A stretch of DNA of 64,000 bases, from positions 82,098 to 146,097 of the forward strand of contig CAZCYO010000004.1 of the NCBI GenBank assembly GCA_964503265.1. Reading direction: 5' to 3'. A model generated the notes under the pieces. It saw only the letters and a list, made by a program, of their open reading frames with translations. It made no database searches and was not told the origin of the DNA. The position numbers were made by a program, and so were the translations under genes. Within the stretch, counting starts at the first letter, position 1; each line of letters starts with the position of its first letter. This stretch comes from an uncultured Gammaproteobacteria bacterium (GTDB lineage: Bacteria; Patescibacteriota; Microgenomatia; Levybacterales; UBA12049). Shown here piece after piece: positions 7,105 through 39,367 of this stretch.

Positions 7105-7138
7105 GGAGCTATTATACTCTACTGATATGAGATACTAA

Positions 7139-7804: not shown

Positions 7805-7871
7805 TATACGTATCTTATCACGAACAAAACAATCAAGAAATAACGAAACGAAAGACGATACGTTCTAAACG

Positions 7872-8765
7872 CTATATTTTGAGGCTTTTGAGGTATTCAC
7901 GGAAATGTTCGCCTACTTCACCATGGTCCATACCAAATTCAACGACTGTTTTTAAATATTCAAGCTTATTTCCTGTATCATAATATCGTCCACCTTTAAT
8001 TTCTGCTGCTAGCACATGTTTTTTATCTTCGATCATCAGTTTTAGTGCATCATTATAGTAAAGCTCTTTTCCATCTTCAAGAGTTTCGTTTGCTCGATCG
8101 AGATAGTCAAAAATATCCGGATTAAATACAAACCCACTCACATTGGCAAGATCTGAAGGAGCGTTATCTTTCCCAGGTTTCTCAACGATCGATTCTACAT
8201 CAATAATCCCATCTCGCAGTTCCTGGCCCGCTGCAAATCCATATCGATCATAATCTTCTGGTTTGGTCGCTTTAATACTTGCGAGTACTGGCCAACCAAA
8301 TTCTTCATACACTTCAATAAGTTGTTTAAAGCGAGACTGTGGTTCTGCTTTAATAAAATCATCGCTCCACGTATAAATAAATGGTTCGTCTCCGATAATT
8401 TGCCGAACATTCAGTAGTGGGGTCCCATTTCCATATGGTCCTTTTTGCCTTACATAGACAAAATTAGCCATATTTCCGACAGCTTCTGTGAGTTCAATAA
8501 GTGGTTTTTTCTTTTCCCCACCCATTCGGAGATTTTCGATAAGTTCAAGTGAAGGACGATCGAAATGATCCTCGATCGAACGTTTGTGGTATCCAGTCAC
8601 GATAATGATATCTTCAATACCAGCATCAACTAATTCCTCGACAATGTACTGGATGATAGGCTTATCGACAACTGGAAGCATTTCCTTCGGCATAGCCTTG
8701 GTTTGTGGGAGAAATCGAGTGCCAAATCCGGCAGCTGGAATGACTGCTTTTCTAATTTTCTTCAT
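7872..8765 (-). CDS. galU: UTP--glucose-1-phosphate uridylyltransferase
   Basis: The N-terminus KAVIPAAGFGTRFLPQTKAMPKEMLPVVDKPIIQYIVEE is a classic GalU signature, and the 297-aa length fits. Confidence 0.85.
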   Translation of the reverse strand: MKKIRKAVIPAAGFGTRFLPQTKAMPKEMLPVVDKPIIQYIVEELVDAGIEDIIIVTGYHKRSIEDHFDRPSLELIENLRMGGEKKKPLIELTEAVGNMANFVYVRQKGPYGNGTPLLNVRQIIGDEPFIYTWSDDFIKAEPQSRFKQLIEVYEEFGWPVLASIKATKPEDYDRYGFAAGQELRDGIIDVESIVEKPGKDNAPSDLANVSGFVFNPDIFDYLDRANETLEDGKELYYNDALKLMIEDKKHVLAAEIKGGRYYDTGNKLEYLKTVVEFGMDHGEVGEHFREYLKSLKI

Positions 8766-8864
8766 GAATAACGCAATTATATAAGAAGAGCTTTCTGATT
8801 TGCAATATGTTTACAAAAATCTTGCATTGTCTACGGACGATCTGGTTTAATAATACTACGTACC

Positions 8865-11765
8865 ATGGATAATCCACAGGCTGATTTACATACTAGTGAG
8901 AATGAAGAAAAAATTGTTTTGGCTAAACCTCCTATTCCAACTCGTTTTGGAACCATAAAAGAAAAAGTTACATCTCTATCAAAAAATAGATCTCTCCAGC
9001 TTGGTCTGGGTTTATTACTTGTTGCAACTGTTCCATTTACGATCCTTCAAAGCTTTAAACAACAAGATATTCAACAACATGCTGCAGCTACTACTGGATA
9101 CGATATGGCAACTTGGAAACTTCCAGAATTTACAACACTTGAACAGCTTGAGACCGAACTAAGCAAATCTGTAGATGGTGGACAGTATCCAATTGGACTT
9201 GATGATTATCTTAAATGTCCGGTAGCAGCACCCTATCATGATACCAGTAACCCTGGAAGAACAAGCGATTGTGACCAAAAAGGTGTTATTTGGGGAAATC
9301 CGGCTATCCCTCCAGGAACGCTTAACCAAGAAGAGGCTCATTGTAAGGCAAATCAATATGCTGGTGGACCTAACGGAGGGGGGGCATGTGAAAATGACAC
9401 AACCCCAAATGATCCATGGTATTTTTTCGGAACTGTCGGAGATAGTACGAGCACAAATGATATTTTCTACACTGTTGGTCAAGCGAATTATGAGGCAAGG
9501 CTTGCAGGAAGTTGTATTTTTAGATCAGCTCATTGCCGAGATCGTGGATGTATGTATTATGCAGTTGATGGCCCAGATGATACATGGGCCGGAGGATGGC
9601 ATTATCAGAGAAGTAAAGATAGTGCATGTTGGGGCATAAGTACATGGTCTTGTGCCCGAAGTGGCTGGTCACGTGCGATGGGATGGGCCCAAACACGATG
9701 GAGACAGTATGCTGAAAAGAAGACTCCAGGCTGGTCATCTGGAAAACCTTTCACCGTATTTCCAGATCGACGGTGTATCTTATCACTCGCCGTCATGGAA
9801 GTTCGATCTGAATGTAAACGAGCTGAAAATGGTGAATGTGGTGAAGGTAGTGATAAAAACGTCGCAAATGTAGGGTTTTTCCTTGACCCTACCACCCCCC
9901 GTTCTGCTGGAGGGTCTTCAAAGGCTGTTGCGTTAGTTATGCAAACCGCAGCATCAGATAAATCATCGTGTGAAAAGACCGATACACATTTTACTGATTT
10001 AACCCCAGGTGATAGTTGTCTAGAAAAAGCAGTCACAGCACTTAGCACTTCGACAGGCACCTCTCCTGCGTGTACGGCTCGTGGCTATGGTGGGGGTATA
10101 TTCGCACCTGCCAACCCAGTAACTCGCGAAGAATTCCTCGCGTTTATCACGAGATATCATGTCTATGTAGCAAAGGACTGGAAATATATCGATGTCTCAA
10201 GTACGACAGATCTTCCTGATAGTAAGCTTTACTCTGATGTCCCCAGAAACCACCCCCAAGCACTTAACATTTACACAGCAGCGCTGAAAGGATTTACTGA
10301 TACAGACGTTGGGAAAGAGTATAAACCAGCCGACCCATGGAACTGGAAATGGAGTGCAAGCAGTGGCATTGACAAAGTTGACAAGGCAGCACAGGCTTCT
10401 ATAACGAGAGGTGAGGTCGTTGTCGGGCTATATAACTATGGTATTGGGAAGCAACAACTTACAGGTGTAGCATGTAATGCTGTGGCAGCGACTGCAGAAA
10501 AACCACCTGCTCCATTTACAGAAGGTGTCGACCAAGAGGATGAAGCTAAAGCTGCTGCCCGAAGAGCAGTATGTGGAAAAAATGATAGTAATCCGACGAC
10601 AGAATCGTCTCTTCTCAATGGATTTATTGTCAGCGCCCCAACAGTTACTGCTTTTAACGATAGAATCTTACTTTTCGCCAAAGGCAAAGAAAATAAACTA
10701 TATATGCGAACATTTGGTGTTAGTAAAGGAAGAATTACCGATTTAGCAAGTAGTCCTTGGATTGATTTAGGAAAAACAGTAAATAATACTCCAATAACAG
10801 CCTATACCAACACGTCAAAAACACTCTTTGTAATCGTAACAGGTGCGGATGGGAAACTATATTCACGCTCAACCAAAACAGGTACTACGCTTTCTGACTG
10901 GAGTGACTGGACCAACTCTATTCCTGAAGGATATATTCCTGGAAAGGCAGATACGGACGGTATTGCTGTTCTTGACCAATTTACATATAGCTTTACCAAA
11001 GGAATTGGAGATTCTGTGCCAAATAATGTATGTCTTTCTTTCATTGCTGCTCCTGGATTTGTGAGTGGTGGATCAGGAGCAGTCCCAGGAGGTGGAGGAA
11101 GTCAGCCAGCAACTCCCGCACCAAAAGTACCGACGATTACACCGGCTAATCCGTCAACGACATATGTTATCGGCGGTGCATACTATGAAGTTCCTCCATT
11201 CCCAGATGATCTTACATTCTACGCAAAACCAATTCCACCTACGACCTTTACTCCTGATCCAGTAAAAGCAAAAGGACAAGTGTTTCAGTTTCTCAAAGTT
11301 CCAGCCGGAACATATCGAATATATGCAGAGACAGTGCCAAACTTTTTGCAAACATTGCCTCCTACCACAAACGATGTAAATACGAATTATAGCTATGTTG
11401 TAACTGCAGGTCCTGGTTGCACGATAAGTCCTAAGCGTGAGAAGAACGGAGACAAAACAGAATGTGTTTCTAGTGAAAATCCATCCGGGCTTGTGTTCGA
11501 ATTCGACCCAGCAAATACTGATCCAGCTTCTGCCTTTAATTCATGTGTTAATACCTGTCAAAATGACGGTGATGGAGTAAAGACAAGGGATTACTGTGAA
11601 ACAGTTATTTGTAAAGACAAATTACCTCAATCCTCACTTGCACAGCGAACCGCCGAAAACCAGCCTAATTTACTTCAGCAAATGGGATCAGGCGTAGTGG
11701 GTCTCGTTACAACTGTTGTTACAGCTGCTGGTGACGTATTCCACGCAGTAAACCCATTTGACTAA
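8865..11765 (+). CDS. Large cell-surface protein: N-terminal TM anchor with KQQDIQQHAA motif, Cys-rich domain, SLH-like module
   Basis: TM helix followed by the conserved motif FKQQDIQQHAA. There is a Cys-rich region of ~250 aa. An SLH-like segment reads ARGYGGGIFAPANPVTREEFLAFITRYH. Confidence 0.5.
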   Translation: MDNPQADLHTSENEEKIVLAKPPIPTRFGTIKEKVTSLSKNRSLQLGLGLLLVATVPFTILQSFKQQDIQQHAAATTGYDMATWKLPEFTTLEQLETELSKSVDGGQYPIGLDDYLKCPVAAPYHDTSNPGRTSDCDQKGVIWGNPAIPPGTLNQEEAHCKANQYAGGPNGGGACENDTTPNDPWYFFGTVGDSTSTNDIFYTVGQANYEARLAGSCIFRSAHCRDRGCMYYAVDGPDDTWAGGWHYQRSKDSACWGISTWSCARSGWSRAMGWAQTRWRQYAEKKTPGWSSGKPFTVFPDRRCILSLAVMEVRSECKRAENGECGEGSDKNVANVGFFLDPTTPRSAGGSSKAVALVMQTAASDKSSCEKTDTHFTDLTPGDSCLEKAVTALSTSTGTSPACTARGYGGGIFAPANPVTREEFLAFITRYHVYVAKDWKYIDVSSTTDLPDSKLYSDVPRNHPQALNIYTAALKGFTDTDVGKEYKPADPWNWKWSASSGIDKVDKAAQASITRGEVVVGLYNYGIGKQQLTGVACNAVAATAEKPPAPFTEGVDQEDEAKAAARRAVCGKNDSNPTTESSLLNGFIVSAPTVTAFNDRILLFAKGKENKLYMRTFGVSKGRITDLASSPWIDLGKTVNNTPITAYTNTSKTLFVIVTGADGKLYSRSTKTGTTLSDWSDWTNSIPEGYIPGKADTDGIAVLDQFTYSFTKGIGDSVPNNVCLSFIAAPGFVSGGSGAVPGGGGSQPATPAPKVPTITPANPSTTYVIGGAYYEVPPFPDDLTFYAKPIPPTTFTPDPVKAKGQVFQFLKVPAGTYRIYAETVPNFLQTLPPTTNDVNTNYSYVVTAGPGCTISPKREKNGDKTECVSSENPSGLVFEFDPANTDPASAFNSCVNTCQNDGDGVKTRDYCETVICKDKLPQSSLAQRTAENQPNLLQQMGSGVVGLVTTVVTAAGDVFHAVNPFD

Positions 11766-11781
11766 CGAGTCACCCTTCCCC

Positions 11782-11810
11782 TTTACACTCAGTCTCCTAT
11801 CTGATAAAAT
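11782..11810 (+). promoter_or_regulatory. Putative sigma70-type promoter of secE-nusG-rplKA
   Basis: TTTACA (11782-11787), a 17-nt spacer, then TAAAAT (11805-11810), directly upstream of secE. Confidence 0.35.
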
Positions 11811-11847
11811 GTGACACAGCTCAAATTTGTATTTGGGTTACTTGCTA

Positions 11848-12029
11848 TGACGAGCCCTATAACGTTTTTACGAGAGACTTACGATGAACTCCGAAAGGTT
11901 ATATGGCCAACTCGTAATGAAATCATCCGTCTTACAGCAATAGTCGTGATTATTAGCGTCGCTGTCGGAATATACATTGGAGGACTCGATTTCGCACTCG
12001 TTAAAGCAGTCGAATATATCATTAAATAA
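11848..12029 (+). CDS. secE: Preprotein translocase subunit SecE
   Basis: The sequence …RKVIWPTRNEIIRLTAIVVIISVAVGIYIGGLDFALVKAVEYI is a SecE TM helix. The start is taken at ATG 11848; the ORF track extends to a GTG at 11811, so the start is uncertain. Confidence 0.7.
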
Positions 12030-12032
12030 ACA

Positions 12033-12678
12033 TATGTCAGACCAAAATCAAACAGATCAAACCATTGTTGAACCTACAGAAGAAGTCACAGTTGATGAAA
12101 CTGCGGGTGTCGTTGAAAAGACTGACGTGCTTGAAAAAGCACCTATCGACTCTTCGGCTGGCAAATGGTACATCATCCACACCTATGCAGGACATGAGAA
12201 TAAAGTAGCACGATCTCTTAAACAGCGTGTTGAAGCTAATGGATTTGAAAGTAGAATCTTCGATATTATCGTTCCTGTTCGTAAAACAATTAAAGTCGCA
12301 CAAGGTAAAAAAGAAGAAGTTGAAGAAAAGATTTTCCCAGGATACGTTCTCGTTAAGATGATCCTTGATGACGAATCATGGTTACTCACACGCAGTACTC
12401 AGGGTGTAACAGCCTTCATCGGTGCTGGTAACAAACCAACCCCTATCTCAGAAAAAGAAGTAGAAGCTATTCAGAAGTTCATGAAAATGGAAGAACCACT
12501 CTATAAAGCTGCATTCTCTGTGGGTGAAGCAGTTAAAATTACCGATGGGCCATTTGCTGAATTCTTAGGAACAATCGATAACATTGATGAAGGACACGGA
12601 AAACTTCGTGTACTCGTTTCAATCTTCGGTCGAGAAACACCAGTGGAACTTGATTTCCTTCAGGTTAAAAAGATATAA
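12033..12678 (+). CDS. nusG: Transcription termination/antitermination factor NusG (with acidic N-terminal extension)
   Basis: NGN domain (KWYIIHTYAGHENKVARSLKQRV…VPVRKT) and KOW region (KIFPGYVLVKM…GEAVKITDGPFAEFLGTI). The start is taken at the ATG after the secE stop. The track ORF begins further upstream, overlapping secE. Confidence 0.8.
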
Positions 12679-12698
12679 TCAGCAAACTCTAAAAAACT

Positions 12699-13118
12699 AT
12701 GGCTAAAAAGATCAAAACACTCATTAAACTTAATATCCCAGCAGGATCAGCAACACCAGCACCACCTGTCGGACCAGCACTTGGTCAACACGGACTTCCT
12801 ATTATGGAATTCGTTAAAGCATATAATGATCGAACTGCGGATCAAAAAGGAAACATCTTACCAGTCGTTATTACCGTCTACGAAGATCGTACATTTACGT
12901 TCATTACGAAAAAACCACCTGTTGCAGAGATGATCAAAAAAATGATCGGACGAGGCGGAAGTGGTCGACCTAACAAAGAAAAAGTTGGAAAACTTACCAT
13001 GGATCAAGCAAAAGAAATAGCAACAGCAAAACTTGAAGATTTAAATACAGATGATGTCGACATGGCAGCAAGAATTGTCATGGGAACGGCACGAAGTATG
13101 GGAGTGGAGATAAAATAA
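12699..13118 (+). CDS. rplK: 50S ribosomal protein L11
   Basis: [32 protein letters not shown]… is the canonical L11 sequence. Confidence 0.9.
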
Positions 13119-13119
13119 T

Positions 13120-13917
13120 ATGGGGAAAATTAGAGTAAAATCATTTGGAGATACAGAAGCTGAAGCTAAAGACGCAAAGCTCACACAAAAACGTGCTGAT
13201 GCTAAGGCTGCTAAAAAACTAGAACAAACTGCAGGAGAAGCTCCTGAAGCTATGTCTCACGTTGTTGAAGAAAGTGCAACGAAAGAAAAAAAACAAAAAT
13301 ATGCAGTTACCTCTAAAAACCAGAAACACAAATCACCAAAATACCAAGACGCAGCTAAGCTAGTTGAAAAAAGTAAAACATATAAAGTAAAAGACGCACT
13401 CGAACTCCTCCCAAAACTTACTGTCGCAACATTTGATGAAACTGTTGAATTACACATTAATACCACAGCTACAGGAATCGTTGGGAATATGGTACTTCCT
13501 CATGGAACAGGAAAACAAACCAAAGTAGCTATCGCAACAGATGAAATCATCGCTGAAATTGAAAAAGGTATTATCAATTTTGACGTTTTAATCGCTGAAC
13601 CAATGATGATGGCAAAACTCGCTAAAGTAGCTCGAATTTTAGGTCCTCGTGGACTCATGCCAAATCCTAAAAATGGTACTGTTACTCCAAAACCAGAAGA
13701 AGCTGCAAAGAAATTTGAAGGTGGACAAATTAACTTTAAAACAGAATCGAAGTTTCCACTTCTCCACTTAACAGTTGGAAAAGTTTCTTTCGGTGCAGAT
13801 AAACTCCAGGATAACATCAAAGTTGCAATTCAAAGTGTCCAAACAAAAAATATTAAAAATGTTACTCTCAAATCAACTATGTCCCCAGGCATGAAAATTG
13901 ATACCGCTTCTCTCTAA
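13120..13917 (+). CDS. rplA: 50S ribosomal protein L1 (with ~65-aa Lys/Ala-rich N-terminal extension)
   Basis: L1 core (…FDETVELHINT…LPHGTGK…LGPRGLMPNPKNGTV…GKVSFG…). A GGAG-type RBS precedes ATG 13120. An alternative internal start near 13252 is possible. Confidence 0.8.
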   Translation: MGKIRVKSFGDTEAEAKDAKLTQKRADAKAAKKLEQTAGEAPEAMSHVVEESATKEKKQKYAVTSKNQKHKSPKYQDAAKLVEKSKTYKVKDALELLPKLTVATFDETVELHINTTATGIVGNMVLPHGTGKQTKVAIATDEIIAEIEKGIINFDVLIAEPMMMAKLAKVARILGPRGLMPNPKNGTVTPKPEEAAKKFEGGQINFKTESKFPLLHLTVGKVSFGADKLQDNIKVAIQSVQTKNIKNVTLKSTMSPGMKIDTASL

Positions 13918-13965
13918 AAAATCTCCCTTGACAACAATTCATTAAATAACGCACACTAACACTGT

Positions 13966-14937
13966 ATGCGATTTCTTAGTAAATTTCATCCTAAGTTTTT
14001 ATCTCTCATCGTAACTGGTTTTGTGGTTTTAGGACTACCACTTATGGTATTCGTGTCCAGTCAAAAACAAGATAATAGACAACACGCATCAGCTGCGTGT
14101 GTTCCCACTCCTGCTACTCTAACAGCATATACTCCTACTACTTCCTGTGGAACAGATCTCTTTCGATATGTAAAATTTGGTTGTTCAAATGGATACAGTG
14201 GTAGTTTAGGCAGTGATACAAGCTGCAAATCAACAGCAGAATGGAAAAACTATGCATATGAAGAATGTACTAAACAAACTGTCTGTGTTGAACCTACACC
14301 AATAAATTATTGTCCGACTGTAACTGCGAGTACGATATTCGGTGGAAAATCATGCGGAACGAATTTATATGATAGTGTTTCCTATACCTGTAGTGACGGG
14401 TATAAAGGCTATTTTGGAGGCGATACGAGTTGCAAAACCTGGGAGACATGGATTGGGTATGCTCAAAAAGATTGTGCGAGTAGAACAGTATGTAGCTACC
14501 CAACTGCAATGCCAACTCCAATTTCAACGACAATGCCATACCCGACCTCCCTGCCAACCACGATGCCATACCCTACGACTGTCATGACACCAAAACCTAC
14601 ACTCGCTATGCTAACGGGCACATGGATGAAGGCTACACCGTATTCAGCGAAAATCACAGTAAAAGCTGGTGTTTATACGCCTATAAAAGCATTTACTATC
14701 CAGAACGTTTCGGGAAAACCTTCGTTCTGGGCAACAGCCTCGTTAAGTTTGGATAAGCCAGAAAGTTCTCGATTTATTATTATTGATGGTGCTTCACTTT
14801 TTATAAGTACAACTGGTGTTCCAGTAAATATTAAAGCGACAAGCTCTGCAACAGCTGGAGTCTACAGTGGATTTGTAAGTATAAAAAATAGCTACGAACA
14901 GATAACTCTCCCCGTTGAAGTGATAGTGACAAAATAA
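13966..14937 (+). CDS. Secreted protein with TM anchor, KQDNRQHAS motif and two tandem Cys-rich ~75-aa repeats
   Basis: N-terminal TM plus SQKQDNRQHASAA. The tandem repeats are CGTDLFRYVKFGCSNGYSGSLGSDTSCKS…C…C and CGTNLYDSVSYTCSDGYKGYFGGDTSCKT…C…C. A Pro/Thr linker follows. Confidence 0.45.
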   Translation: MRFLSKFHPKFLSLIVTGFVVLGLPLMVFVSSQKQDNRQHASAACVPTPATLTAYTPTTSCGTDLFRYVKFGCSNGYSGSLGSDTSCKSTAEWKNYAYEECTKQTVCVEPTPINYCPTVTASTIFGGKSCGTNLYDSVSYTCSDGYKGYFGGDTSCKTWETWIGYAQKDCASRTVCSYPTAMPTPISTTMPYPTSLPTTMPYPTTVMTPKPTLAMLTGTWMKATPYSAKITVKAGVYTPIKAFTIQNVSGKPSFWATASLSLDKPESSRFIIIDGASLFISTTGVPVNIKATSSATAGVYSGFVSIKNSYEQITLPVEVIVTK

Positions 14938-15029
14938 TAATTCTCCTTTTAAACTTGTACTGATGTTTACTTAATGGGAAATAAGCCACCATCATTGACT
15001 CTTTAAGCCTAATTCTTTACGCTAGAGAT

Positions 15030-17093
15030 ATGTACGTATTAATGAGTAATAAAAGACGATTATTAACCATAATAGTAATTATATTCCTCATTCTGTCACT
15101 CCCAACAATTATGTATGTCATTAGCACCCGACAAGATATCCGCCAACGAGCTTCGGAGAACGTTTCACTTAATCCAGCATTTGGAAAAACCTGTGAAGTG
15201 AATGATATTGACACATTAATATCTTGTTTTGGGAGATTATATTATGGAAACGACCAAGTGGACGTCATTAAGTTCACGGCTATGGTTAACTGTAATGAAT
15301 TAGATAATTGCGAGGTGTCAATACCAAGTATCCGTCGCCCAGTGCTCATATATGGAGATCCGGGAACAGAAGTAGGGATAAAAAGCACAGGTACCAATAG
15401 CTTACACGTTTTTAGTATCACAAATTCTGATAATGTTGATATTAAAAATATTCAGATAATCGGAAATGGTGAGCCCTGTCCAGAAAATAGATCCTGTTCC
15501 AACGGGTTGACCATCGGAGATTCAACTAATATACGAATCGATAATGTCACGGTCAGAAATGCTAAAAGAGGAATAGGTGTGTATTATTCGGACAAGGTTA
15601 CTATTACGAATAGTACTATCACGAATAATGATCAAGAAGGGATTCATGTCCATTCAGCAACAGATACTAATTTGCTCACTCCAACTTCTGGAACAGTATT
15701 TATTGAAAATAATATCATTTCTGATAACAGGAGATATGGCATATTTATTGAAGGCATCTACCCGAGCATTTCTCCAAGTCACATTTCAGGAAACATATTA
15801 GATCATAACCATACAAAAACATATCCAGGATATTGTATATCAGATACACTAACCGCATGTGGGGGTGGCCAAATTACGATCAAAAACTATACTTCGAATA
15901 TCGTTATCGAGAATAACATCATTCGAAATGGAAGTCTTACAACAAGTATTCTCGATACAGGTGTTTCAGGAATTGAATTAGGAAATCGTACTATTCAAAA
16001 TATACAAATACGTTCAAATGATATTCACGATAATAGCTTTTGGGGAATCAGCTCCTATGAAAATACCGACAACATGACAAATAATACAATCCAAGATAAT
16101 CGTATTTATAATAATGCTAAAGGTACACTCTTACCCTCATTCTCCCAACAAGCCAATAACTGTACGACATCCTCATGCCCGGCACCAACTATCACTGGGA
16201 CTATCTCGCCAACTACAAATTTCACTTCCATTAACGCTACTGGTCAATGTCAAACAACCATTTCCTGGTCAACAAACGCTTCTACAGCAAGTATTTATAG
16301 AGAAGAAAATCTTCTTTCAAATACAACAACAGGCTCTCAATTATTGTCAACAATTCCACCAGGAAAAACACGCTTTGATCTCCTATCGGGAACCATTGAT
16401 AAATCTCGGCTCGCAAGTACTGTCGTATACTGTTTTGCAAGCCCTTCAGTAGTAGCTTCAAATGCGCCTTCAAATTCACCAACTCAGGTACCACTACCAA
16501 CAGTCACGCCGACAGTAACACAACCTCTCCCAACACCTACGCTTATTCAAACACTCACACCTGCTAAAGGAACATTTTCACTTTCTGTCATCCTTCATGG
16601 TATTGGAAATAACGGAGACAATACAAATAAAACAGGAGGAAACCTTACACCTCGAACTACAACTCGAACTGTTTCTGTTGAGTTAACTAATACAGAAGGA
16701 TCTGTACTTCCAGCGTTTCCTTCACAAATCACCTACCAATCAGCTACTCAAAAGTTCGTTGGGGAAGCGAGAATTCCTCAGACTATTCCTAATGGTACAT
16801 ATTCCATACGAATAAAAAGCTCTGGATATCTATCTTCACGCATATCAGGATTCGTTACTATCACCGATAATACAGTGCTCACGTTACCAGTGACTACACT
16901 AACCGTAGGAGACACATTTGTGGATAATAAACTCGACATTTTGGATTTTAATATCATTATGACATGCTGGATCACTTCAGAAGTCTGCTCTCCAGAACAA
17001 AAAATACTTTCAGATCTAGACGATGATGGAAATGTCACCGCTATAGATGACAACCTTTTTATTCGAGAAATAACGATTCAACGTGGTTATTAA
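15030..17093 (+). CDS. Surface protein: TM anchor + RQDIRQRAS motif, right-handed parallel beta-helix (PbH1) repeats, dockerin-like C-terminus
   Basis: Repeated NxxIxNNxI(x)G beta-helix rungs (…VDIKNIQIIGNG…IRIDNVTVRNAKRGIGV…ITNSTITNNDQEGIHV…). The C-terminus, LDILDFNII…DLDDDGNVTAIDDNLFIRE, resembles two dockerin Ca-binding repeats. Confidence 0.55.
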   Translation: MYVLMSNKRRLLTIIVIIFLILSLPTIMYVISTRQDIRQRASENVSLNPAFGKTCEVNDIDTLISCFGRLYYGNDQVDVIKFTAMVNCNELDNCEVSIPSIRRPVLIYGDPGTEVGIKSTGTNSLHVFSITNSDNVDIKNIQIIGNGEPCPENRSCSNGLTIGDSTNIRIDNVTVRNAKRGIGVYYSDKVTITNSTITNNDQEGIHVHSATDTNLLTPTSGTVFIENNIISDNRRYGIFIEGIYPSISPSHISGNILDHNHTKTYPGYCISDTLTACGGGQITIKNYTSNIVIENNIIRNGSLTTSILDTGVSGIELGNRTIQNIQIRSNDIHDNSFWGISSYENTDNMTNNTIQDNRIYNNAKGTLLPSFSQQANNCTTSSCPAPTITGTISPTTNFTSINATGQCQTTISWSTNASTASIYREENLLSNTTTGSQLLSTIPPGKTRFDLLSGTIDKSRLASTVVYCFASPSVVASNAPSNSPTQVPLPTVTPTVTQPLPTPTLIQTLTPAKGTFSLSVILHGIGNNGDNTNKTGGNLTPRTTTRTVSVELTNTEGSVLPAFPSQITYQSATQKFVGEARIPQTIPNGTYSIRIKSSGYLSSRISGFVTITDNTVLTLPVTTLTVGDTFVDNKLDILDFNIIMTCWITSEVCSPEQKILSDLDDDGNVTAIDDNLFIREITIQRGY

Positions 17094-17108
17094 CATGTTT
17101 ATGCTGGT

Positions 17109-20100
17109 GTGATATACTCCACGCATAAACTTATGGGGCTTAAGAATATTTTAGTACGTGCCTTTGCTTTCGTGCTTCTAACACTGGGTATCGTTACTGC
17201 TGCCGCAACTCCTGCACACGCAGCACCTCCTCAAGACTTTCAGACACAGCTTCTTGTTGGTTCAGGATTATCTAATACTACCGGGTTTGGAATCGCACCT
17301 GATGGGAGAATTTTTATCTTACAGAGAACAGGAGAAGTAAAAGTCTATAAAAATGGCGCCCTCCTGCCTCAACCCTTTACTACCTTCTCAACCGTGATCA
17401 CTGGAGATCGAGGACTCATAGGGATCGCATTTGATCCAGACTTCTTAACCAATCACTATGTGTATTTTTATTTGACTGGGTCTGATCAATATAACCGAGT
17501 TATCAGACTCGACGCACGAAATGATACAGCAGTTGGTGATCAAATCATTATCTTCCAAACATCAACACCTTCTGAACTTCTTCACGTCGGAGGAACAATC
17601 CAGTTTGGTCCTGATGGAAAGTTATATATCGCAGTCGGCGACAATGGCTATGGCCCAAATGCGCAAGATCTAGGCAATCCTCATGGGAAAATTCTTAGAA
17701 TTAATAAAGATGGAAGTACACCAGGAGACAATCCATTCGTGAATATAGAGGGTGTCGACCCCCAAATTTACGCATATGGACTGAGAAATCCCTTCAGGTT
17801 TCAATTCGATGAAGTTAGCGGCAGAATGTATGAGGGAGATGTCGGAGCTGCAGACTGGGAAGAAATAAATACCATTACTCCGGGTGGAAATTATGGGTGG
17901 CCAGCAGCTGAGGGAAATTGCACAGATTGTCCATATAGTAATCCTATTTTTACCTATAACCATGCAAACCAAAGTTCATCAATAACAGGTGGCCCTGTCT
18001 ATCACAAATCCCTTTTCCCTTCAGAATACCAAAATAATCTCTTTTTTGGCGACTATGCTCGAGGATTTATAAGAAGATTGCAATTTGACGACTCTGGAAA
18101 CGTTCTTGGAGATTATGACTTTGACATGAATGCGGGAAGTGTCGTAGATTTAAAAGTCGGAAACGATGGAGGATTATATTATATAACCTATTTCCCATCT
18201 CGTCTCTATAAAATTACATACTCGACAGGGAACCATTCGCCTATTCCCAATGCAGATGTCGATACTATGAAAGGAATAAGTCCCCTAACTACTCACTTCA
18301 CGAGTAGTGGGACATATGACCCAGATAACGACCCACTCTCCTATTTCTGGAATTTTGGTGATGGAACGAGCAGTTCTGAGGCAAATCCTACAAAAATATA
18401 CACAAAAAACGGTAACTACATAGTCACACTAACTGTAAGAGATAGTAATAATTTATCTAATCAATCTATTCCACTTGTTATTCAGGTTGGACTACCACCA
18501 GCAGTTATTATTGGGAGCCCCAAAGAAGGAGCTACATATCATGCAGGAGACACCATAGCATATACAGCATTTGCAAGTGATGGTGCAGGATTTGACCTTG
18601 GCGATGAAAGCATCTCAACTCAGGTACTTCTTCATCATGATACTCACGCTCATCCTTTCTATGGACCAATAACAGGAAGATCTCATGAATTTACTATCCC
18701 TATAAATGGTGAGCCGTCAGCGAACACTTGGTATGAGATTATTATCACAGCAACTGATGCAAACGGTCTTACAAACACAAAATCTGTCACTATTTTTCCT
18801 ATTAAATCAACCTTCCATTTTACGACCGTTCCAGCCGGAATTTCTCTTAAAATTGACGGCCAGCCATTTGCAACTCCTAAAAACATTCAGGGTGTTTCAG
18901 GTTACCAGCGTGAAATAGAAGCATATTCCCAAGACACAAATGGCCACTCTTACCAATTTAGCCATTGGTCAAATAATGGACCTGCCAGACAAACAATCAC
19001 AACAACTGATCAAGATACAAATTTTATTGCGTACTTTACAGACATAGGTTCAATCGATACTCCAGCCAGTAACCTCCAAGCAGCAGTCCAAGCAAACAAC
19101 GTCACTCTTTCATGGAACCAAAGTAGTGGAATATATATGAATCTTGATGCATCAGATAGTGATCATATTCAAGTGTATACAAATGCTGATTATACAGGAA
19201 CAAACGTTCTTGATGGTGGTGTGGGTGGTGGCATAACATCATGGACAATCCCAATTAATAATTCTGGTACATATAATTCTCTTCAGCCTGGAAGAACATA
19301 TTACGCTCGTGTGTATAGCTGGAATGCACCGTGTAATTGTGCCAATGGGACGACTACATCATTCACCACTTCAGGAACTGCAACAAATGGAGACAAGCCA
19401 CCAACCAATCTTTCTATTACTGGACAAACAAATCAAATAGTCCTTAATTGGTCACCAAGTACTGGAATATATACCAATCGTGATGGTAGTGACCATGATC
19501 ATATTCAGGTCTACTCTAATCCAAACTTTACGGGGACAAACGTGCTCGATGGTGGTGTCGGTGGTGGCATAACATCATGGTCTATCCCAATTAATACCAC
19601 GGGCAGTTATAACTCTGTTCAGCCTGGCAAAACATACTATGCACATATTTACAGCTTTAATGCACCGTGTAATTGTAGTAATGACACAAGAGGTAGCTTT
19701 ACTGTTCCTCAAGCAACTGGAGGGACTGGAGAAAAACCTGCAACGAACCTACAAGTAGCAGTTCAAGAATCAAGCGTTATCCTTTCATGGAACCAAAGTA
19801 GTGGAATATATATGAATCGTGATGCCTCAGATAGTGATCATATTCAGGTGTATACGAACCCTGATTATACAGGAACGAAAGTTCTTGATGGTGGTGTGGG
19901 TGGTGGAAATACTTCATGGACTATTCCTATTAACGATTCAGGTTCATATAATTCTGTTCAACGTGGTAAGACATACTATGCTCGTGTGTATAGCTGGAAC
20001 GCCAGTTGTAACTGCAGCGATGGAACAACGACGAGCTTTACTGTGACTGGAACTACTAATGATCATGGAGCGAGTAATCTCCAAGCTCTTAGCTCAACCA

Positions 20101-20381
20101 GTCAAGTCACTCTTTCCTGGTTACAAAGTTCAGGGATATACATGAATCGTGACGCCTCAGATAGTGATCATATTCAAGTGTATACGAACCCTGATTATAC
20201 AGGAACGAAAGTTCTTGATGGTGGTGTGGGTGGTGGAAATACTTCATGGACTATCCCTATTACTAACTCAGGCGTATATAATTCACTAAATTCTGGAACC
20301 ACCTACTATGCTCGCGTTTATAGCTGGAATGCACCATGCAACTGTAGTACGGGCACTGCAATTAGCTTCATAACCCCATAG
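17109..20381 (+). CDS. Secreted multi-domain protein: PQQ-type soluble sugar dehydrogenase-like beta-propeller + PKD domain + four FN3-like tandem repeats
   Basis: Signal peptide (…PAHA/AP). The glucose/sorbosone dehydrogenase family motif is HVGGTIQFGPDGKLYIAVGDNG. The PKD motif is FWNFGDGTSS. There are four ~110-aa repeats (…LSWNQSSGIYMNRDASDSDHIQVY…LDGGVGGG…YYARVYSWNAPCNCS…). Confidence 0.6.
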   Translation: MIYSTHKLMGLKNILVRAFAFVLLTLGIVTAAATPAHAAPPQDFQTQLLVGSGLSNTTGFGIAPDGRIFILQRTGEVKVYKNGALLPQPFTTFSTVITGDRGLIGIAFDPDFLTNHYVYFYLTGSDQYNRVIRLDARNDTAVGDQIIIFQTSTPSELLHVGGTIQFGPDGKLYIAVGDNGYGPNAQDLGNPHGKILRINKDGSTPGDNPFVNIEGVDPQIYAYGLRNPFRFQFDEVSGRMYEGDVGAADWEEINTITPGGNYGWPAAEGNCTDCPYSNPIFTYNHANQSSSITGGPVYHKSLFPSEYQNNLFFGDYARGFIRRLQFDDSGNVLGDYDFDMNAGSVVDLKVGNDGGLYYITYFPSRLYKITYSTGNHSPIPNADVDTMKGISPLTTHFTSSGTYDPDNDPLSYFWNFGDGTSSSEANPTKIYTKNGNYIVTLTVRDSNNLSNQSIPLVIQVGLPPAVIIGSPKEGATYHAGDTIAYTAFASDGAGFDLGDESISTQVLLHHDTHAHPFYGPITGRSHEFTIPINGEPSANTWYEIIITATDANGLTNTKSVTIFPIKSTFHFTTVPAGISLKIDGQPFATPKNIQGVSGYQREIEAYSQDTNGHSYQFSHWSNNGPARQTITTTDQDTNFIAYFTDIGSIDTPASNLQAAVQANNVTLSWNQSSGIYMNLDASDSDHIQVYTNADYTGTNVLDGGVGGGITSWTIPINNSGTYNSLQPGRTYYARVYSWNAPCNCANGTTTSFTTSGTATNGDKPPTNLSITGQTNQIVLNWSPSTGIYTNRDGSDHDHIQVYSNPNFTGTNVLDGGVGGGITSWSIPINTTGSYNSVQPGKTYYAHIYSFNAPCNCSNDTRGSFTVPQATGGTGEKPATNLQVAVQESSVILSWNQSSGIYMNRDASDSDHIQVYTNPDYTGTKVLDGGVGGGNTSWTIPINDSGSYNSVQRGKTYYARVYSWNASCNCSDGTTTSFTVTGTTNDHGASNLQALSSTSQVTLSWLQSSGIYMNRDASDSDHIQVYTNPDYTGTKVLDGGVGGGNTSWTIPITNSGVYNSLNSGTTYYARVYSWNAPCNCSTGTAISFITP
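19064..20378 (+). repeat. Four near-identical ~330-bp tandem coding repeats (FN3-like modules)
   Basis: Long identical DNA stretches recur, e.g. caagtgtatacgaaccctgattatacaggaacgaaagttcttgatggtggtgtgggtggtggaaatacttcatggactat at ~19841 and ~20171. Confidence 0.7.
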
Positions 20382-20503
20382 GAGATACCTTTTCTCTTCA
20401 CATAGCTAACAGATAGCAAAGAGAAGAAGGTATACAACTCTTTATATGCATTATTGCTTCTTCTCTTGACATTTTAATTTGGCTTTCTCTATGCTATAAA
20501 GAG

Positions 20504-23257
20504 ATGAATTTTATTGTTGAAAGATTAAGCCAATTACTAAGATCAGTTACAAATAAAAAATCACTGACGATTCTTTCTGTCGCACTTGTTCTCATCGCAC
20601 TTCCTCTAACAGTCTACATAGGCCAACAACGACAAGATATCAGACAGCGAGCTTCTGGTGGACCACTTGGATATGCACCAGCTGGTACATGTAGCGATCA
20701 GTCATTTTCAGATCTCACTACAGCTCAAGGCACGGTGACAGATCTTGCACTGGCTGCATCTTGTCTGAATCAATCAGTCTATAACTATTGTGTCGTTCGT
20801 GGATTTGGAGATAATACCTTCCGACCAAATGATAACCTCACCCGAGCAGAATTTGTGGCCTTTATCGTGAGATATCATGGAAATATATTTCCGGCAGGAC
20901 ATCCTCAGCGCTGGGATCTTATGACAACAGCTGAAATAGATAGTCTTCCCGTATTTCCAAATAAAATCACGAATGCAACAACAGGCAAGGAACAATTTCG
21001 CCTCTTAGACATCCCTTCTAGCTACCCGCTTGCACGAGAAATCTATACATCACAGAAATATGGATTTATTAAAGGCTATCAGGATGGCACCTTTCAACCA
21101 AGTGTTACTTGGAATTTTGGCTTTCATGGAATAACCCGAAATGATCAAGGCATTGATCCTAATTATAATGACTCATTTAATAATCCCTATAATTTCGCAG
21201 CTGAGTCCGGTCAAATAAAGCGTGGAGAATTTATAAGTCAGCTTTACCAATACGGGAAAGACCCAGTTCGCGCAATAAACGGACAAATCCAATTAGCAGC
21301 ATGTTTCCAGCCGACAGCTGTACCACCGACAGCGACATCAGTTCCTGTCACACCAACCAATCCTCCAACATCAAGCGGTGGAACAGTAACACAAAATGCT
21401 AGTTGCTCTAATACACTATCTGACGTACCCACATCACTCAACCAAGCCATGGGATGCTACCATAACACGACAGCAAGTGGCTACTGCATCGTTCGAGGAA
21501 ACGGCACGACACTTGGTCCAAATGATAACTTATCCAGAGCTGAGTATGTAGCATTTATCGTTAGATACCATAACCAAGTTTTCCCTGTCGGAAATGCCAA
21601 TCACTGGGACCTCATCACTAGAGCTGAATACGATGCACTTGATGGAACAACAGGTAAAAAGAAATTTCCAGACGTAAATCCAGACACATACTCACTCTGG
21701 CAAGAAATTTATACATCACAGAAATATGGATTTGTTGTCGGACAGCTCGATGGTAACTTCTATCCAAACGATCTCTGGACATTTGGTTTCCATGGAATTA
21801 CCAGAAACGATCAGTGGCCAGCTGGAACAGGATATGATTTTAATACGGCTGGGAATTCTATTAGTAGAGGAACATTTATCCAGCAGCTTTTTGATTATGG
21901 TAAAACCAAAGCACAACTCACCGCCTGCTTCCCAGTCTCTACCACCTATATGATTTCAGGTGTCGTTAGTGGAGTAACCGCAGCGACAAATATGGTATGG
22001 AATGTTCCAAATGGTGCATTACCTCCAGTTCCATTCCAAACAGATGCATCAGGAAATTATGCAATTCGAGATCTGAGCGCTGGTACATATTTAGTATCTG
22101 TTGTCTCACCAAGTGGAAAGACAGCAACCCCTCTATCGTATACAGTTAAAGTGGGAGATGGCTGTACTGTTACACCAGCTGGTGAGAGTTCCTGTGGAGC
22201 AGATGGTAATGCAAGTAAGGTAAACTTCTCTGTTACCCAAACACCTCCAGTGGTAACACTCACCGCTCCAGCGAACTTAAGACCTTCTGGATCAATTACC
22301 GAAGGTCAAACTACAGTACAGTGGGATGCCGTTATTGGTGCAGATTCTTATGAATATTCACTTTTGGATCAGACGCTTAACACTAATTTACCAGGTTGTG
22401 TAGTAAAAGGTGGTACAAATAACGATACTGGATGCGTACTCACATTCCCAGCCACCCAACAGAGTTATAATTTTCTGGCGGGACATACGTATCGCATAGG
22501 TGTAAGCGCCATAACGACTTCTTCATCAGGTGTTATCGCACGTGGGCCTGAATCTTCAGTAATAATTACTGCCGCAGCAGCCGTCAGTCAAACACCATCA
22601 ACATCTCCTACGCAAGCTCGTATCAACCTTGAGGTAATCTTTAGACAACATGGTATTGGACTAGCAGCAGATAATGCTAACCCAAATGCAACACCATTAG
22701 TAGTTAGTGGAACCATCATGCCGTTCCCAACACCGGTAGACCTCTTTAGAAATAGAGCTGTGACTGTCTACCTTTCGACAGGAACATCTCTTAATGACGG
22801 AACGCCACAGTATGAATATCAAAAAACTGGAACAGCATTGTACTCACCTGATAACAGTGGGTTTTATAAAGGAGTTATTGATCTAGGAACAGATGTTCCA
22901 GCAGGACAATATATTGTGGCAGTAAGAACAAGTAATTCTCTTTCTCAACAGGCTACAGGATTTGTAACAATTACACCTACAAACACCGTGATTGTTAACT
23001 TTCCGGCCCTTGTTTCAGGAAATGTTTATGACTCAACAATCGATAATACTACTCCCACCAACGATAACCAACTCGACATTCTCGATTACAATGCAATTAT
23101 GGATAACTGGCTGAATCCAGATCTATGCACTACCAGTAATAACCAGACTGTTTGTAACACCATTCGAACACGAGCCGACCTCAATGCAGATGGAGTAGTC
23201 GATGTACTTGACTATAATCTCTTTATCCGAGAACTCAGTGTTCAACGAGGAAGATAA
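20504..23257 (+). CDS. Surface protein: TM anchor + QRQDIRQRAS motif, multiple SLH-like modules, Ig-like region, dockerin-like C-terminus
   Basis: SLH-like segments (…VVRGFGDNTFRPNDNLTRAEFVAFIVRYH…; …GFIKGYQDGTFQP…; …CIVRGNGTTLGPNDNLSRAEYVAFIVRYH…; …GFVVGQLDGNFYP…). The C-terminus, LDILDYNAIM…DLNADGVVDVLDYNLFIRE, is dockerin-like. Confidence 0.55.
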   Translation: MNFIVERLSQLLRSVTNKKSLTILSVALVLIALPLTVYIGQQRQDIRQRASGGPLGYAPAGTCSDQSFSDLTTAQGTVTDLALAASCLNQSVYNYCVVRGFGDNTFRPNDNLTRAEFVAFIVRYHGNIFPAGHPQRWDLMTTAEIDSLPVFPNKITNATTGKEQFRLLDIPSSYPLAREIYTSQKYGFIKGYQDGTFQPSVTWNFGFHGITRNDQGIDPNYNDSFNNPYNFAAESGQIKRGEFISQLYQYGKDPVRAINGQIQLAACFQPTAVPPTATSVPVTPTNPPTSSGGTVTQNASCSNTLSDVPTSLNQAMGCYHNTTASGYCIVRGNGTTLGPNDNLSRAEYVAFIVRYHNQVFPVGNANHWDLITRAEYDALDGTTGKKKFPDVNPDTYSLWQEIYTSQKYGFVVGQLDGNFYPNDLWTFGFHGITRNDQWPAGTGYDFNTAGNSISRGTFIQQLFDYGKTKAQLTACFPVSTTYMISGVVSGVTAATNMVWNVPNGALPPVPFQTDASGNYAIRDLSAGTYLVSVVSPSGKTATPLSYTVKVGDGCTVTPAGESSCGADGNASKVNFSVTQTPPVVTLTAPANLRPSGSITEGQTTVQWDAVIGADSYEYSLLDQTLNTNLPGCVVKGGTNNDTGCVLTFPATQQSYNFLAGHTYRIGVSAITTSSSGVIARGPESSVIITAAAAVSQTPSTSPTQARINLEVIFRQHGIGLAADNANPNATPLVVSGTIMPFPTPVDLFRNRAVTVYLSTGTSLNDGTPQYEYQKTGTALYSPDNSGFYKGVIDLGTDVPAGQYIVAVRTSNSLSQQATGFVTITPTNTVIVNFPALVSGNVYDSTIDNTTPTNDNQLDILDYNAIMDNWLNPDLCTTSNNQTVCNTIRTRADLNADGVVDVLDYNLFIRELSVQRGR

Positions 23258-23327
23258 TTGCTGTGCTTGACAAAAAAATCACTCTGTGTTTAAATCTCAA
23301 TTAAGGTTGTACGACCTATAAATTAAA

Positions 23328-27245: not shown

Positions 27246-27260
27246 TAATAGCGCATACTG

Positions 27261-30663: not shown

Positions 30664-30709
30664 ATAGTAAATAAAGCTTGACAAATAAAGACAATTTTCT
30701 CATGATAGA

Positions 30710-35490: not shown

Positions 35491-35607
35491 ATCCGAAGCA
35501 CGAAATTCGAAGTTCGAAACAATTGAGAATAACAAAAATTCAAAATAGTTTCGTGTTTCGAAATTCGATTTTCGAACTTACATTTGAAGGGAGGTGAAAC
35601 GAACGTT

Positions 35608-39285: not shown

Positions 39286-39367
39286 GATTCCTCCAGATAT
39301 ATGAACATTCAATTGGAGACACCATTGTCTCCTCAAGTCACAGCATCGTGAAGAAGTGGACACTACA

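Follow-up and report, generated by a model that had tools for sequence, protein, structure and literature searches.

Bacteria of the CPR/Patescibacteria are uncultivated and host-dependent, and attachment is presumed to depend on the proteins of their surface, whose sorting has, to our knowledge, hardly been described. Long or unusually conserved N-terminal signals can commit cargo to one peptidase or export route; examples are the cognate signals of paralogous signal peptidases, such as SipW with TasA/TapA (TIGR04088), and the extended signal regions ESPR (PF13018) and KxYKxGKxW (TIGR03715). The N-terminal module described here is unlike them: it has no match to these models, and both the taxa and the motif positions differ.

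The module is like the LPXTG/sortase, PEP-CTERM/exosortase, PGF-CTERM/archaeosortase and GlyGly-CTERM/rhombosortase systems in combining a motif, a transmembrane helix and a basic cluster, with the motif at the outer membrane face and many unrelated cargoes per genome in one lineage. It is unlike these tripartite C-terminal signals in being their N-terminal mirror image, and no cognate enzyme was found in the loci searched. The analogy with sortase, exosortase and rhombosortase signals drawn in the initial annotation holds for topology only. In a sortase-type acyl-enzyme transpeptidation it is the leader, and not the cargo, that would be kept, so the chemistry cannot be the same.

The YSIRK/GxxS motif (PF04650) is found in the N-terminal Sec signal of a subset of Gram-positive surface proteins and is thought to direct special trafficking, not export itself (PMC5962339, PMC10865820). 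The module likewise is found on part of the surface proteins only, in genomes that also use ordinary signal peptides, but its conservation peaks in the outer helix half and over the next 10 residues, whereas the YSIRK motif is located in the n-region and early h-region. There is no sequence similarity or Pfam match between the two, and the lineage here is CPR. The YSIRK cargo is anchored by LPXTG and sortase, while the module cargo has no LPXTG (0/152) and about 40-50% of it has dockerin. The Bacteroidetes Q-rule (PMC5837995, PMC10653852) is, like the module, a lineage-specific sequence rule with Gln at the boundary of signal peptide and mature protein. The Q-rule, however, concerns a single Gln at +1 after unconserved signal peptides in most substrates of signal peptidase I, and the module is a conserved stretch of 50 residues in a subset of exported proteins.

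The four leaders of the window and their family

The window is the whole stretch of DNA that was analysed, with a length of 64 kb. Four genes in it start with a basic n-region and a 21-residue apolar helix with (L/V)P, followed by QD(I/N)(R/Q)Q(R/H)A, and all four N-termini read as the initial annotation had quoted them. These genes, their modules and two other window proteins are listed below (the arrow in a peptide is a cleavage site).

8865..11765, plus strand: gene 1, 966 aa; cargo with an SLH-like segment and a Cys-rich region (ORF, Pfam SLH, module HMM 39.8 bits)
8982..9086, plus strand: module of gene 1, residues 40-74; motif QDIQQHA at 9063-9083
13966..14937, plus strand: gene 2, 323 aa; Cys-rich cargo (module HMM 44.7 bits)
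13987..14091, plus strand: module of gene 2, residues 8-42; motif QDNRQHA at 14068-14088
15030..17093, plus strand: gene 3, 687 aa; cargo with a right-handed beta-helix, an Ig-like domain and a C-terminal dockerin (module HMM 41.6 bits)
15051..15158, plus strand: module of gene 3, residues 8-43; motif QDIRQRA at 15132-15152
20504..23257, plus strand: gene 4, 917 aa; cargo with two SLH-containing repeats, CarboxypepD_reg-like and Ig-like domains and a C-terminal dockerin (module HMM 58.4 bits)
20507..20659, plus strand: full leader of gene 4; motif at 20633-20653 (AlphaFold2 model, regex, module HMM)
Peptide representing the module as a candidate signal peptidase I substrate: PLTVFIAQKQQEIRQRASEP
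17109..20381, plus strand: GSDH/PKD secreted protein, contrast case in the same gene cluster; ordinary short signal peptide ..AAATPAHA↓APPQ (site judged by eye), without module
30710..33616, plus strand: FAD_oxidored and SLH protein, possible degenerate relative of the module, not counted as member (5.5 bits against the module HMM)

The relaxed regular expression Q[DEQN].[RQKH]Q[RHKQ]A had exactly four matches when all six frames of the 64 kb were translated (9063, 14068, 15132 and 20633), and each of them is in a long plus-strand ORF just past the N-terminal hydrophobic helix. First-order Markov simulations of the window gave a mean of 0.05 matches and a maximum of 1. The four modules align gap-free from the K/R of the n-region to the Ala. 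The spacing from Pro to motif, earlier put at 8-10 residues, is tighter, with Pro exactly 10 residues before the Q of QD in 4/4 genes.

The family HMM has 36 positions and scored the four genes at 40-58 bits, against 6 bits for the next-best window ORF and <=6 bits elsewhere in the window. The leader makes the surface and secreted proteome of a single CPR lineage recognisable, and offers curators a domain model which is at present absent from Pfam and NCBIfam. The mature domains had been called unrelated. This is right for gene 13966, which had no match to the other three, but not for two of the pairs: 8865 and 20504 have a common SLH-containing region of ~190 aa with 27-31% identity, and 15030 and 20504 have a common C-terminal Ig-like and dockerin region of ~215 aa with 29% identity.

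An exhaustive HMMER search among 1.84 billion proteins found 1,638 cluster representatives (clusters at 50% identity) at E<=1e-3, and 62 at <=1e-10. The match was N-terminal in all of the best 150 of the 1,638 representatives. With these 150 and four proteins obtained earlier, the strict regular expression found the motif in 151/154, and one of the three misses is an L1 ribosomal protein taken for another purpose. The module was at ORF residues 1-66 in 152/152 module ORFs from 85 loci. Other searches found less: a full-length search with gene 20504 gave 7 proteins, a contig scan with one highly specific peptide pattern gave two loci, one word-indexed search with a short N-terminal alignment gave only 8 short fragments, another such search gave no match, and neither did an exact look-up of one protein at the window edge. 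With two loci from the contig scan, the sampling of taxonomic range and of module counts per genome is thin. No confirmed match was obtained in the viral-contig scan. Judged from the profile matches, the four window N-termini are a divergent local sample of a large family.

Metagenome matches were mostly from groundwater. Levybacteria is the label of the named records L003, P0008 and P0013; L002 goes under Saccharimonadales though it is syntenic with L003. The module is restricted to one lineage, Levybacteria-like Microgenomates (CPR/Patescibacteria), an assignment which rests on few named records.

The leader is about 50 residues long, with the family consensus ...[SK]RT-LGILxLLIVAA(V/I)PLTV(F/I/Y)(I/V)(A/S)-Q(Q/K)QQ(E/D)IRQRA-(S/A)(E/G). 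It has three parts: a conserved cytoplasmic n-region, which is a short helix ending in [S/K]-[R/K]-T (with [S/K]-[R/K] at -26/-25); an apolar helix, with near-invariant AA(V/I)PLTV in the outer half; and a polar helical extension of 10-12 residues, Q(Q/K)QQ(E/D)IRQRA(S/A)(E/G). In the logo Q0, Q+4 and A+6 never vary, while R+3 is kept in 146/151 and P-10 in 140/151. Beyond +8 the information content drops from above 2 bits to below 0.7 bit. The apolar stretch has a median of 21 residues (interquartile range 21-21), and the register is gap-free throughout. The two flanks differ in net charge, with +2.7 N-terminally and +0.7 C-terminally. A basic n-region before a hydrophobic core, together with this N-in bias, is what is expected of a Sec signal peptide.

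AlphaFold2 modelled the leader of gene 4 as a helix at residues 2-13, predicted cytoplasmic, and one continuous helix at 18-52 over the apolar segment and QQRQDIRQRAS (pLDDT 93-95 over residues 21-40). The helix ends at RQRAS-G and predicted disorder follows. Standard predictors would likely label the module proteins as membrane rather than secreted, as we expect.

No Pfam model covered the module when full proteins and module-only sequences were searched down to E<=10, and no sorting- or signal-domain model of NCBIfam matched it consistently. Heimdall-CTERM was matched by 2/22 members at E about 0.007, which we read as compositional. Literature searches with strings and keywords gave no description of the motif. 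The initial annotation did not recognise the motif as a described signal, and in these databases and the searchable literature that is borne out: the module is apparently an undescribed, strongly conserved export or sorting tag.

Cargoes and neighbouring genes

The cargo domains include dockerin, cohesin, Laminin_G_3, VWA, CBM, subtilase, SLH and beta-helix. Dockerin_1 was found in 39/93 representatives, and overall about 40-50% of the members end in dockerin. The two window dockerins (15030 and 20504) scored 19.1 and 18.0 bits with Pfam Dockerin_1, below the gathering cut-off of 22.9. The module was used by 78/94 dockerin-type proteins in the loci, a count that is biased, like the other association counts, by the picking of loci via the module. 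Some dockerin proteins carry ordinary signal peptides instead, so the dockerin route can do without the module. The module is a class apart from such ordinary signals: the same window and loci also encode short signal peptides that end in xxA↓ (window examples are FPTSVFA↓G, VPAFA↓H and MPVLA↓H).

A cohesin protein of ~200 aa with an N-terminal anchor was located within 600 nt of a module gene in 27/30 cases. Pfam Cohesin was above the gathering threshold in 3/6 adjacent anchored proteins tested, with 39.6-42.4 bits. Dockerin on the cargo and an anchored cohesin next door is the gene arrangement of cellulosome-like cohesin-dockerin surface display, in which binding is putative here. This gene association points to a compact display system of this kind in Levybacteria-like bacteria.

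Besides the anchored cohesin, the recurrent neighbours in the 85 loci were a dNTP-metabolism block (dCTP deaminase, Tmk, ThyA, DHFR and GlyA). The initial annotation had proposed to test for co-occurrence of the module with a particular peptidase or transferase, and we did not find such a cognate enzyme in the window, the left flank or the 85 related loci. Pfam annotation of 35 window proteins showed no signal peptidase, sortase or rhomboid, and the only peptidase-type match was a weak sub-threshold Peptidase_S11 on a beta-lactamase-family protein at 43674-44675. The left flank had an M32 peptidase and an S8 peptidase with no link to the module. When 951 genes from the 85 loci (847 kb) were clustered, no membrane peptidase family was enriched near module genes. 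Signature regular expressions over the loci detected no sortase; they did pick up an RDD-signal peptidase I fusion, a single case confined to one locus.

Readings of the leader

The reading we prefer, and to which we give about an even chance, is that the four N-termini are a lineage-specific export leader, that is, a specialised Sec-type signal peptide or signal-anchor for many surface and secreted proteins, probably cleaved. From the charge bias and the uniformly extracellular cargo domains, the basic n-region and apolar helix would insert N-in/C-out via Sec. The conserved helix and polar extension may then be recognised by a membrane factor, either a housekeeping or paralogous type I signal peptidase or a trafficking factor, and the leader would be cut, probably at the putative site (S/T/Q)-(R/K/H)-A↓(S/A). 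Once released, the cargo would stay attached to the cell either through SLH domains or through its C-terminal dockerin, which would bind the membrane-anchored cohesin of the neighbouring gene. For this last step the gene association is observed, and the binding is suggested by the established function of these domain families.

At the putative site P1 is the invariant Ala and P1' is S/A, while P3 is Gln, with S/T only in divergent variants. These variants, found in related loci (TRSKA-A, LRSRA-A, PRSRA-T and LRTRA-L), agree in their P3 residue with the -3/-1 rule that type I signal peptidase follows. The Ala and its neighbours resemble a site for this peptidase, so a new sortase-like system seems no more likely than a specialised signal peptide of the Sec type. 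Several features speak against cleavage. A Gln at P3 is not usual in type I signal peptidase substrates, and two Arg just outside the membrane are atypical for Sec substrates. Canonical sites of this peptidase follow a helix breaker where the apolar stretch ends, and the putative site is 10 residues past the apolar segment and within the predicted helix.

Some of these features would suit a permanent type II signal-anchor that is never cleaved, a serious rival which is possible but on balance unlikely. The 21-residue helix would be the tether, and the polar helix a juxtamembrane stalk or a site of interaction or oligomerisation, for example with a membrane platform or the anchored cohesin nearby. 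At an invariant 21 residues the apolar segment is as long as a transmembrane helix, unlike a typical h-region; the AlphaFold2 helix is uninterrupted through the motif with no helix breaker ahead of the putative site, where Gln at P3 is poor for signal peptidase I; and the residue-specific conservation within the membrane (AAxPLTV) suggests a lasting protein-protein contact. However, the neighbouring cohesins show what a simple anchor looks like here, which is a plain non-conserved helix and then a long linker. Pro/Thr-rich linkers are often present directly after the motif, as for a wall-spanning spacer, but in several cohesin-type members the folded domain begins only ~5 residues past the Ala, and Cys-rich peptides are frequent among the cargoes, with only ~45 residues past the leader. 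The dockerin of ~40-50% of the members and the SLH of some are retention devices usual on released proteins.

It is rather doubtful that the module is a tag for dedicated membrane machinery unique to these CPR bacteria, an N-terminal mirror image of sortase, exosortase or rhombosortase which would process a regulon-sized set of surface proteins at RQRA and either route these to the envelope or attach them there. The dedicated sorting signal proposed in the initial annotation is itself partly supported: a discrete conserved unit that serves diverse cargoes, several per genome, in one lineage and alongside ordinary signal peptides bears the hallmarks of one; what does not match is the lack of a cognate enzyme in the loci. 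If a dedicated enzyme exists, the sorting-signal paradigm would be extended to the N-terminus, and this would be the first tripartite sorting signal known to work from there. Phylogenetic profiling that starts from the module could lead to the factor which processes or traffics these proteins.

We think it improbable that the leader is an ordinary Sec signal peptide which signal peptidase I cuts 10 residues upstream, at ..PLTV(F/I/Y)(I/V)(A/S)↓Q, leaving Q(Q/K)QQ(E/D)IRQRA(S/A)(E/G) as a mature N-terminal tag, probably with pyroglutamate. The would-be -1 residue is A or S in 133/151 and +1 is Gln in 132/151, but -3 is F or Y in 57% of the members, which signal peptidase I disfavours. Pro at -7 and the c-region P-x-T-V-F-I-A resemble ordinary window signal peptides, and the h-region ahead of Pro would then be of typical length (~14 residues); a polar c-region is absent, however, and the strong conservation of the h-region is left unexplained. 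The Q-rule is a precedent in Bacteroidetes (PMC5837995, PMC10653852), but the ordinary signal peptides of the window do not follow it, with Q at +1 in only 2 of about 9 by inspection.

A type IV pilin-like (class III), lipoprotein or Tat signal is very improbable, even though the conserved N-terminal hydrophobic helix is long and has a conserved Pro, and CPR bacteria are rich in type IV pili (PMC6744442), which counts for the pilin-like reading. The module has no G↓F-T-L-I-E, no Glu at +5 in the logo and no N_methyl model match; it has no lipobox Cys, with any Cys between -24 and +8 in only 1/112 modules; and it has a single R/K at -25 (S-R-T-L) without twin-arginine or a TIGR01409-type match. 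A known signal-peptide class, which would have explained the motif, can be set aside for the Tat, lipoprotein, pilin, YSIRK and LPXTG classes. LPXTG was found in 0/152 module ORFs and 0 representatives, and exosortase, archaeosortase and rhombosortase signals are C-terminal while the module is found at the N-terminus only. A SecM/MifM-like ribosome-arrest peptide was rejected by reasoning: the motif abuts the helix, so the helix would still be in the exit tunnel when the motif is decoded. The likeness of (V/I)PLTV in the N-terminal helix to [LIV]PxT is superficial only, and it is inside the membrane segment.

Protein-level selection and possible relatives

In 108 distinct module DNAs, identity was 0.72 at codon positions 1+2 and 0.40 at position 3, and at the invariant residues every synonymous codon is in use, including both Arg codon families. 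The four module DNAs of the window have 67% mean column identity, and their Arg, Ile and Ala codons differ. The module is thus a discrete unit under purifying selection at the protein level, and 140 mature parts fell into 111 architecture clusters. An RNA- or DNA-level element was ruled out by the third-position divergence and the full use of synonymous codons. Recent duplication of a 5' segment with DNA-level identity, the other explanation named at the outset, is refuted because the module DNA is divergent and its synonymous sites are scrambled. We therefore give next to no credence to the shared leader as a historical accident without dedicated function, whether by recent shuffling of a 5' segment among paralogues or as a nucleotide-level element: the four genes are within 12 kb on one strand and other loci also have clusters of module genes, with as many as 6 in 20 kb, but the divergent DNA, the codon-position identities, the 1,638 clusters and the 111 architecture clusters already refute it.

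By inspection, the N-terminal anchor of the 30710 protein has LP and then S-N-A 16 residues on, in the same register as the module. Its paralogues 23328 and 27082 show the same pattern, with T-N-A and S-L-A.

Conservation of the N-terminal module

The module is a discrete, lineage-restricted N-terminal segment of about 50 residues under purifying selection. It has a basic n-region, an apolar helix with (L/V)P and a QDIRQRA-like polar motif. In the window it is carried by four ORFs, named by their start coordinates, and their N-termini all read as the initial annotation had quoted them:

8865-11765, + strand, module gene 8865
13966-14937, + strand, module gene 13966
15030-17093, + strand, module gene 15030
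20504-23257, + strand, module gene 20504

Over the six-frame translation of the 64 kb, a relaxed regular expression for the polar motif gave exactly four matches, all directly C-terminal to an N-terminal hydrophobic helix, while first-order Markov simulations of the window gave a mean of 0.05 matches by chance. The four modules could be aligned gaplessly, starting at the basic n-region residue and ending at the Ala, with Pro constantly 10 residues ahead of the QD glutamine (4/4). Their DNA was divergent (mean column identity 67%) and the codons of the conserved Arg, Ile and Ala differed, so the recent duplication of a 5' segment, which the initial annotation had named as one of two explanations that would undo its reading, is ruled out. 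The mature domains, described there as unrelated, were so for 13966 against the other three; 8865 and 20504 have an SLH-containing region in common, and 15030 and 20504 a C-terminal Ig-like and dockerin region.

A logo was made from 151 sequences and numbered from Q0, the Q of QD/QE, with minus towards the N-terminus. Met was usually 42-43 residues ahead of Q0, and the n-region, ..(F/L)(K/R)(K/R)..F(I/V)xSPxH[S/K][R/K]T, was moderately conserved. The apolar stretch that follows had exactly 21 residues (interquartile range 21-21), including A-12 (124/151), P-10 (140/151), L-9 (131/151), T-8 (138/151) and V-7 (125/151), and was followed by (A/S)-4 and Q-3 (132/151). In the polar motif Q0, Q+4 and A+6 were invariant (151/151 each), R+3 was present in 146/151 and R+5 in 134/151, and the other positions were (E/D)+1, I+2, (S/A)+7 and (E/G)+8; past the motif the information content was below 0.7 bit. 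For the first 100 residues of gene 20504, AlphaFold2 with an alignment of 34 sequences predicted two helices: a short one (2-13) and a continuous one (18-52) that covers the apolar segment and the motif, ends at RQRAS-G and is followed by disorder. Among 108 distinct module DNAs all synonymous codons were used at the invariant residues, including AGR and CGN for Arg, and identity was 0.72 at codon positions 1+2 versus 0.40 at position 3; therefore selection acts on the peptide.

Distribution, cargoes and cohesin neighbours

The four window modules were combined with seven database fragments into a profile, and an exhaustive search of 1.84 billion representative proteins with it gave 1,638 matches at E<=1e-3, of which 62 had E<=1e-10. 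The match was N-terminal in all of the best 150 of the 1,638. The strict motif was passed by 151 of 154 proteins (these best 150 and four others); one of the three misses was the L1 ribosomal protein, which was in the set for another purpose. A single genome scan, with a narrow pattern, found six module genes in a 19-kb stretch of a Levybacteria contig (L003) and one in a related MAG (L002). More than 600 metagenome stretches matched the pattern, in at least 79 loci, mostly from aquifer and groundwater projects to judge by the contig names; at least three contigs with the module were 490-725 kb long.

With a local HMM, 152 module ORFs were identified in 85 loci (847 kb). The module was N-terminal in all 152, which were all co-directional with the seed gene and clustered, up to six per 20 kb. 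The window copies were rather divergent members (40-58 bits), and the best non-module window ORF reached only 6 bits. The taxonomy comes from a few named records: L003, P0008 and P0013 are labelled Levybacteria, and L002 is labelled Saccharimonadales, yet it is syntenic with L003. Many module loci (L002-L084, e.g. L004 390-6149, L002 1104-7427) adjoin a conserved deoxynucleotide-metabolism block (dCTP deaminase, often in two copies, thymidylate kinase, ThyA or ThyX, DHFR, GlyA), which hints at a single orthologous region of the chromosome in these genomes.

The module sits on many extracellular cargoes. Clustering of 140 mature parts at 60% mutual coverage gave 111 clusters, most of which were nonetheless linked through a C-terminal piece in common. 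Among 93 cargo representatives, Pfam detected Dockerin_1 in 39, and further DUF1554, Laminin_G_3, cohesin, SdrD_B, VWA, subtilase, CBM60, glycosyl hydrolase and others. Many members have only 90-100 aa, the leader and then about 45 residues of Cys-rich peptide. No LPXTG-type C-terminal signal was found in module members. The same genomes also use ordinary short signal peptides ending xxA| (sites judged by eye), in the window (17109, 3318, 4256, 4969, 41345, 45156, 54593, 55684, 60412) and in related loci.

Genetically, the module goes together with a cohesin-dockerin pair. It was present on 78 of 94 dockerin-type proteins in the loci, a count that is biased because the loci were chosen through the module. 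The commonest non-housekeeping neighbour, seen in 30 loci, is about 200 aa long and has a plain N-terminal helix followed by a linker and a cohesin domain. In 27 of the 30 its gene is no more than 600 nt from one with the module, mostly directly downstream; three of six such proteins tested matched Pfam Cohesin, with 39.6-42.4 bits. Cohesin and dockerin proteins of these loci would presumably bind each other.

Relation to known signals and possible processing

No Pfam or NCBIfam model covers the N-termini of the four window proteins, and none matched 22 module-only sequences even at E<=10, where scattered matches were compositional. The module lacks what defines Tat, lipoprotein, type IV pilin, YSIRK and LPXTG signals. 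Text searches of the literature with motif strings, and with CPR, Levybacteria or Patescibacteria plus signal terms, found nothing on the motif. Taken together, within Pfam/NCBIfam and the searchable literature, a known signal class, the other explanation that the initial annotation had set against its reading, does not account for the module. YSIRK/GxxS (PMC5962339) and similar specialised Sec signal peptides are its closest functional analogues.

The net charge flanking the apolar helix (+2.7 N-terminally, +0.7 C-terminally) and the extracellular cargo domains point to insertion N-in/C-out through Sec, and the conserved helix and polar extension may be recognised by some membrane factor. We favour cleavage of the leader after the invariant Ala, since P1 is Ala and P1' is S/A, and conservation and predicted structure both stop there. 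In divergent variants P3 is S or T (TRSKA|A, LRSRA|A, PRSRA|T, LRTRA|L), in keeping with the -3/-1 rule for type I signal peptidase, and tiny Cys-rich, dockerin or SLH cargoes make most sense as released proteins. Against this site, Gln at P3 is unusual, the site lies 10 residues past the apolar stretch within a predicted helix, and two Arg would be on the outer side of the membrane. That the module is a permanent anchor is less likely, yet a rival to be taken seriously. Cleavage upstream at (A/S)|Q, leaving a Gln-rich tag, for which the Q-rule (PMC5837995) offers a comparison, is improbable.

The initial annotation had proposed a dedicated sorting signal, and this is supported in part. The module is indeed discrete, selected and placed on many cargoes beside ordinary signal peptides, and its significance is larger than was visible from the window sequence; cleavage after Ala is our reading, and neither the window nor its left flank nor the 85 loci yielded a cognate peptidase or transferase. 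The likeness to sortase-like systems is topological only. That the module marks truly new N-terminal sorting machinery seems doubtful to us.

Downstream of a module gene, at a distance of 4.7 kb, one related locus (L062 14765-15751) encodes a 328-aa fusion of an RDD-family membrane domain and a type I signal peptidase domain (SMEPT ... GDNRETSLDSR). The RDD protein of the window (2310-3296) is without the peptidase part.

Genomic setting of the window genes

The window comes from a CPR/Patescibacteria genome, with GC of about 40%. Its ribosomal genes and large flavoprotein genes are:

11811-13917, secE-nusG-rplK-rplA
13120-13917, rplA, island border
23328-27245, FAD_oxidored (PF12831) paralogue
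27082-30663, FAD_oxidored paralogue, true start probably near residue 61
30710-33616, FAD_oxidored paralogue
34840-35490, rplJ, island border
34840-36000, rplJ-rplL

An island of about 21 kb (13966-33616) interrupts the rplKA-rplJL cluster, which is normally contiguous. It holds seven surface-protein genes: three with the module, one with an ordinary signal peptide and the three FAD oxidoreductases. Metagenomic contig L081, whose NusG is 87% identical, has the same arrangement, with module genes between rplA and rplJ in a 6.6-kb island (6689-13110).

Judging by their N-terminal membrane helix and their fn3 or SLH domains, the three FAD_oxidored paralogues appear to be extracellular flavoproteins. 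Their anchors show LP and then (T/S)-x-A 16 residues on, in the same register as the module, and scored about 5 bits or less with the module HMM. A LytR_C-domain protein (40421-41272, - strand) has an anchor, ..ASLPAYYFYNQYQSAQQRAKD, of loose likeness; its Pro-to-Ala spacing is off by one, it scored 6.4 bits, and it is probably not a member.

Immediately past rplL, in the position expected for rpoB, is a 634-aa ORF (36142-38046) with no Pfam match. A 1.55-kb block (38480-40030) has GC of 52-59% against about 40% for the genome, and overlapping ORFs on both strands, none convincing. The block had no Pfam match, no tRNA, no Rfam family even at E<=1 (only chance miRNA matches) and no homologue in the 85 related loci. 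The folding-energy z-score of 38480-39470 was -5.6 (+ strand) and -5.2 (- strand) against 20 dinucleotide shuffles. The block is possibly a large structured non-coding RNA, or else inserted foreign DNA.
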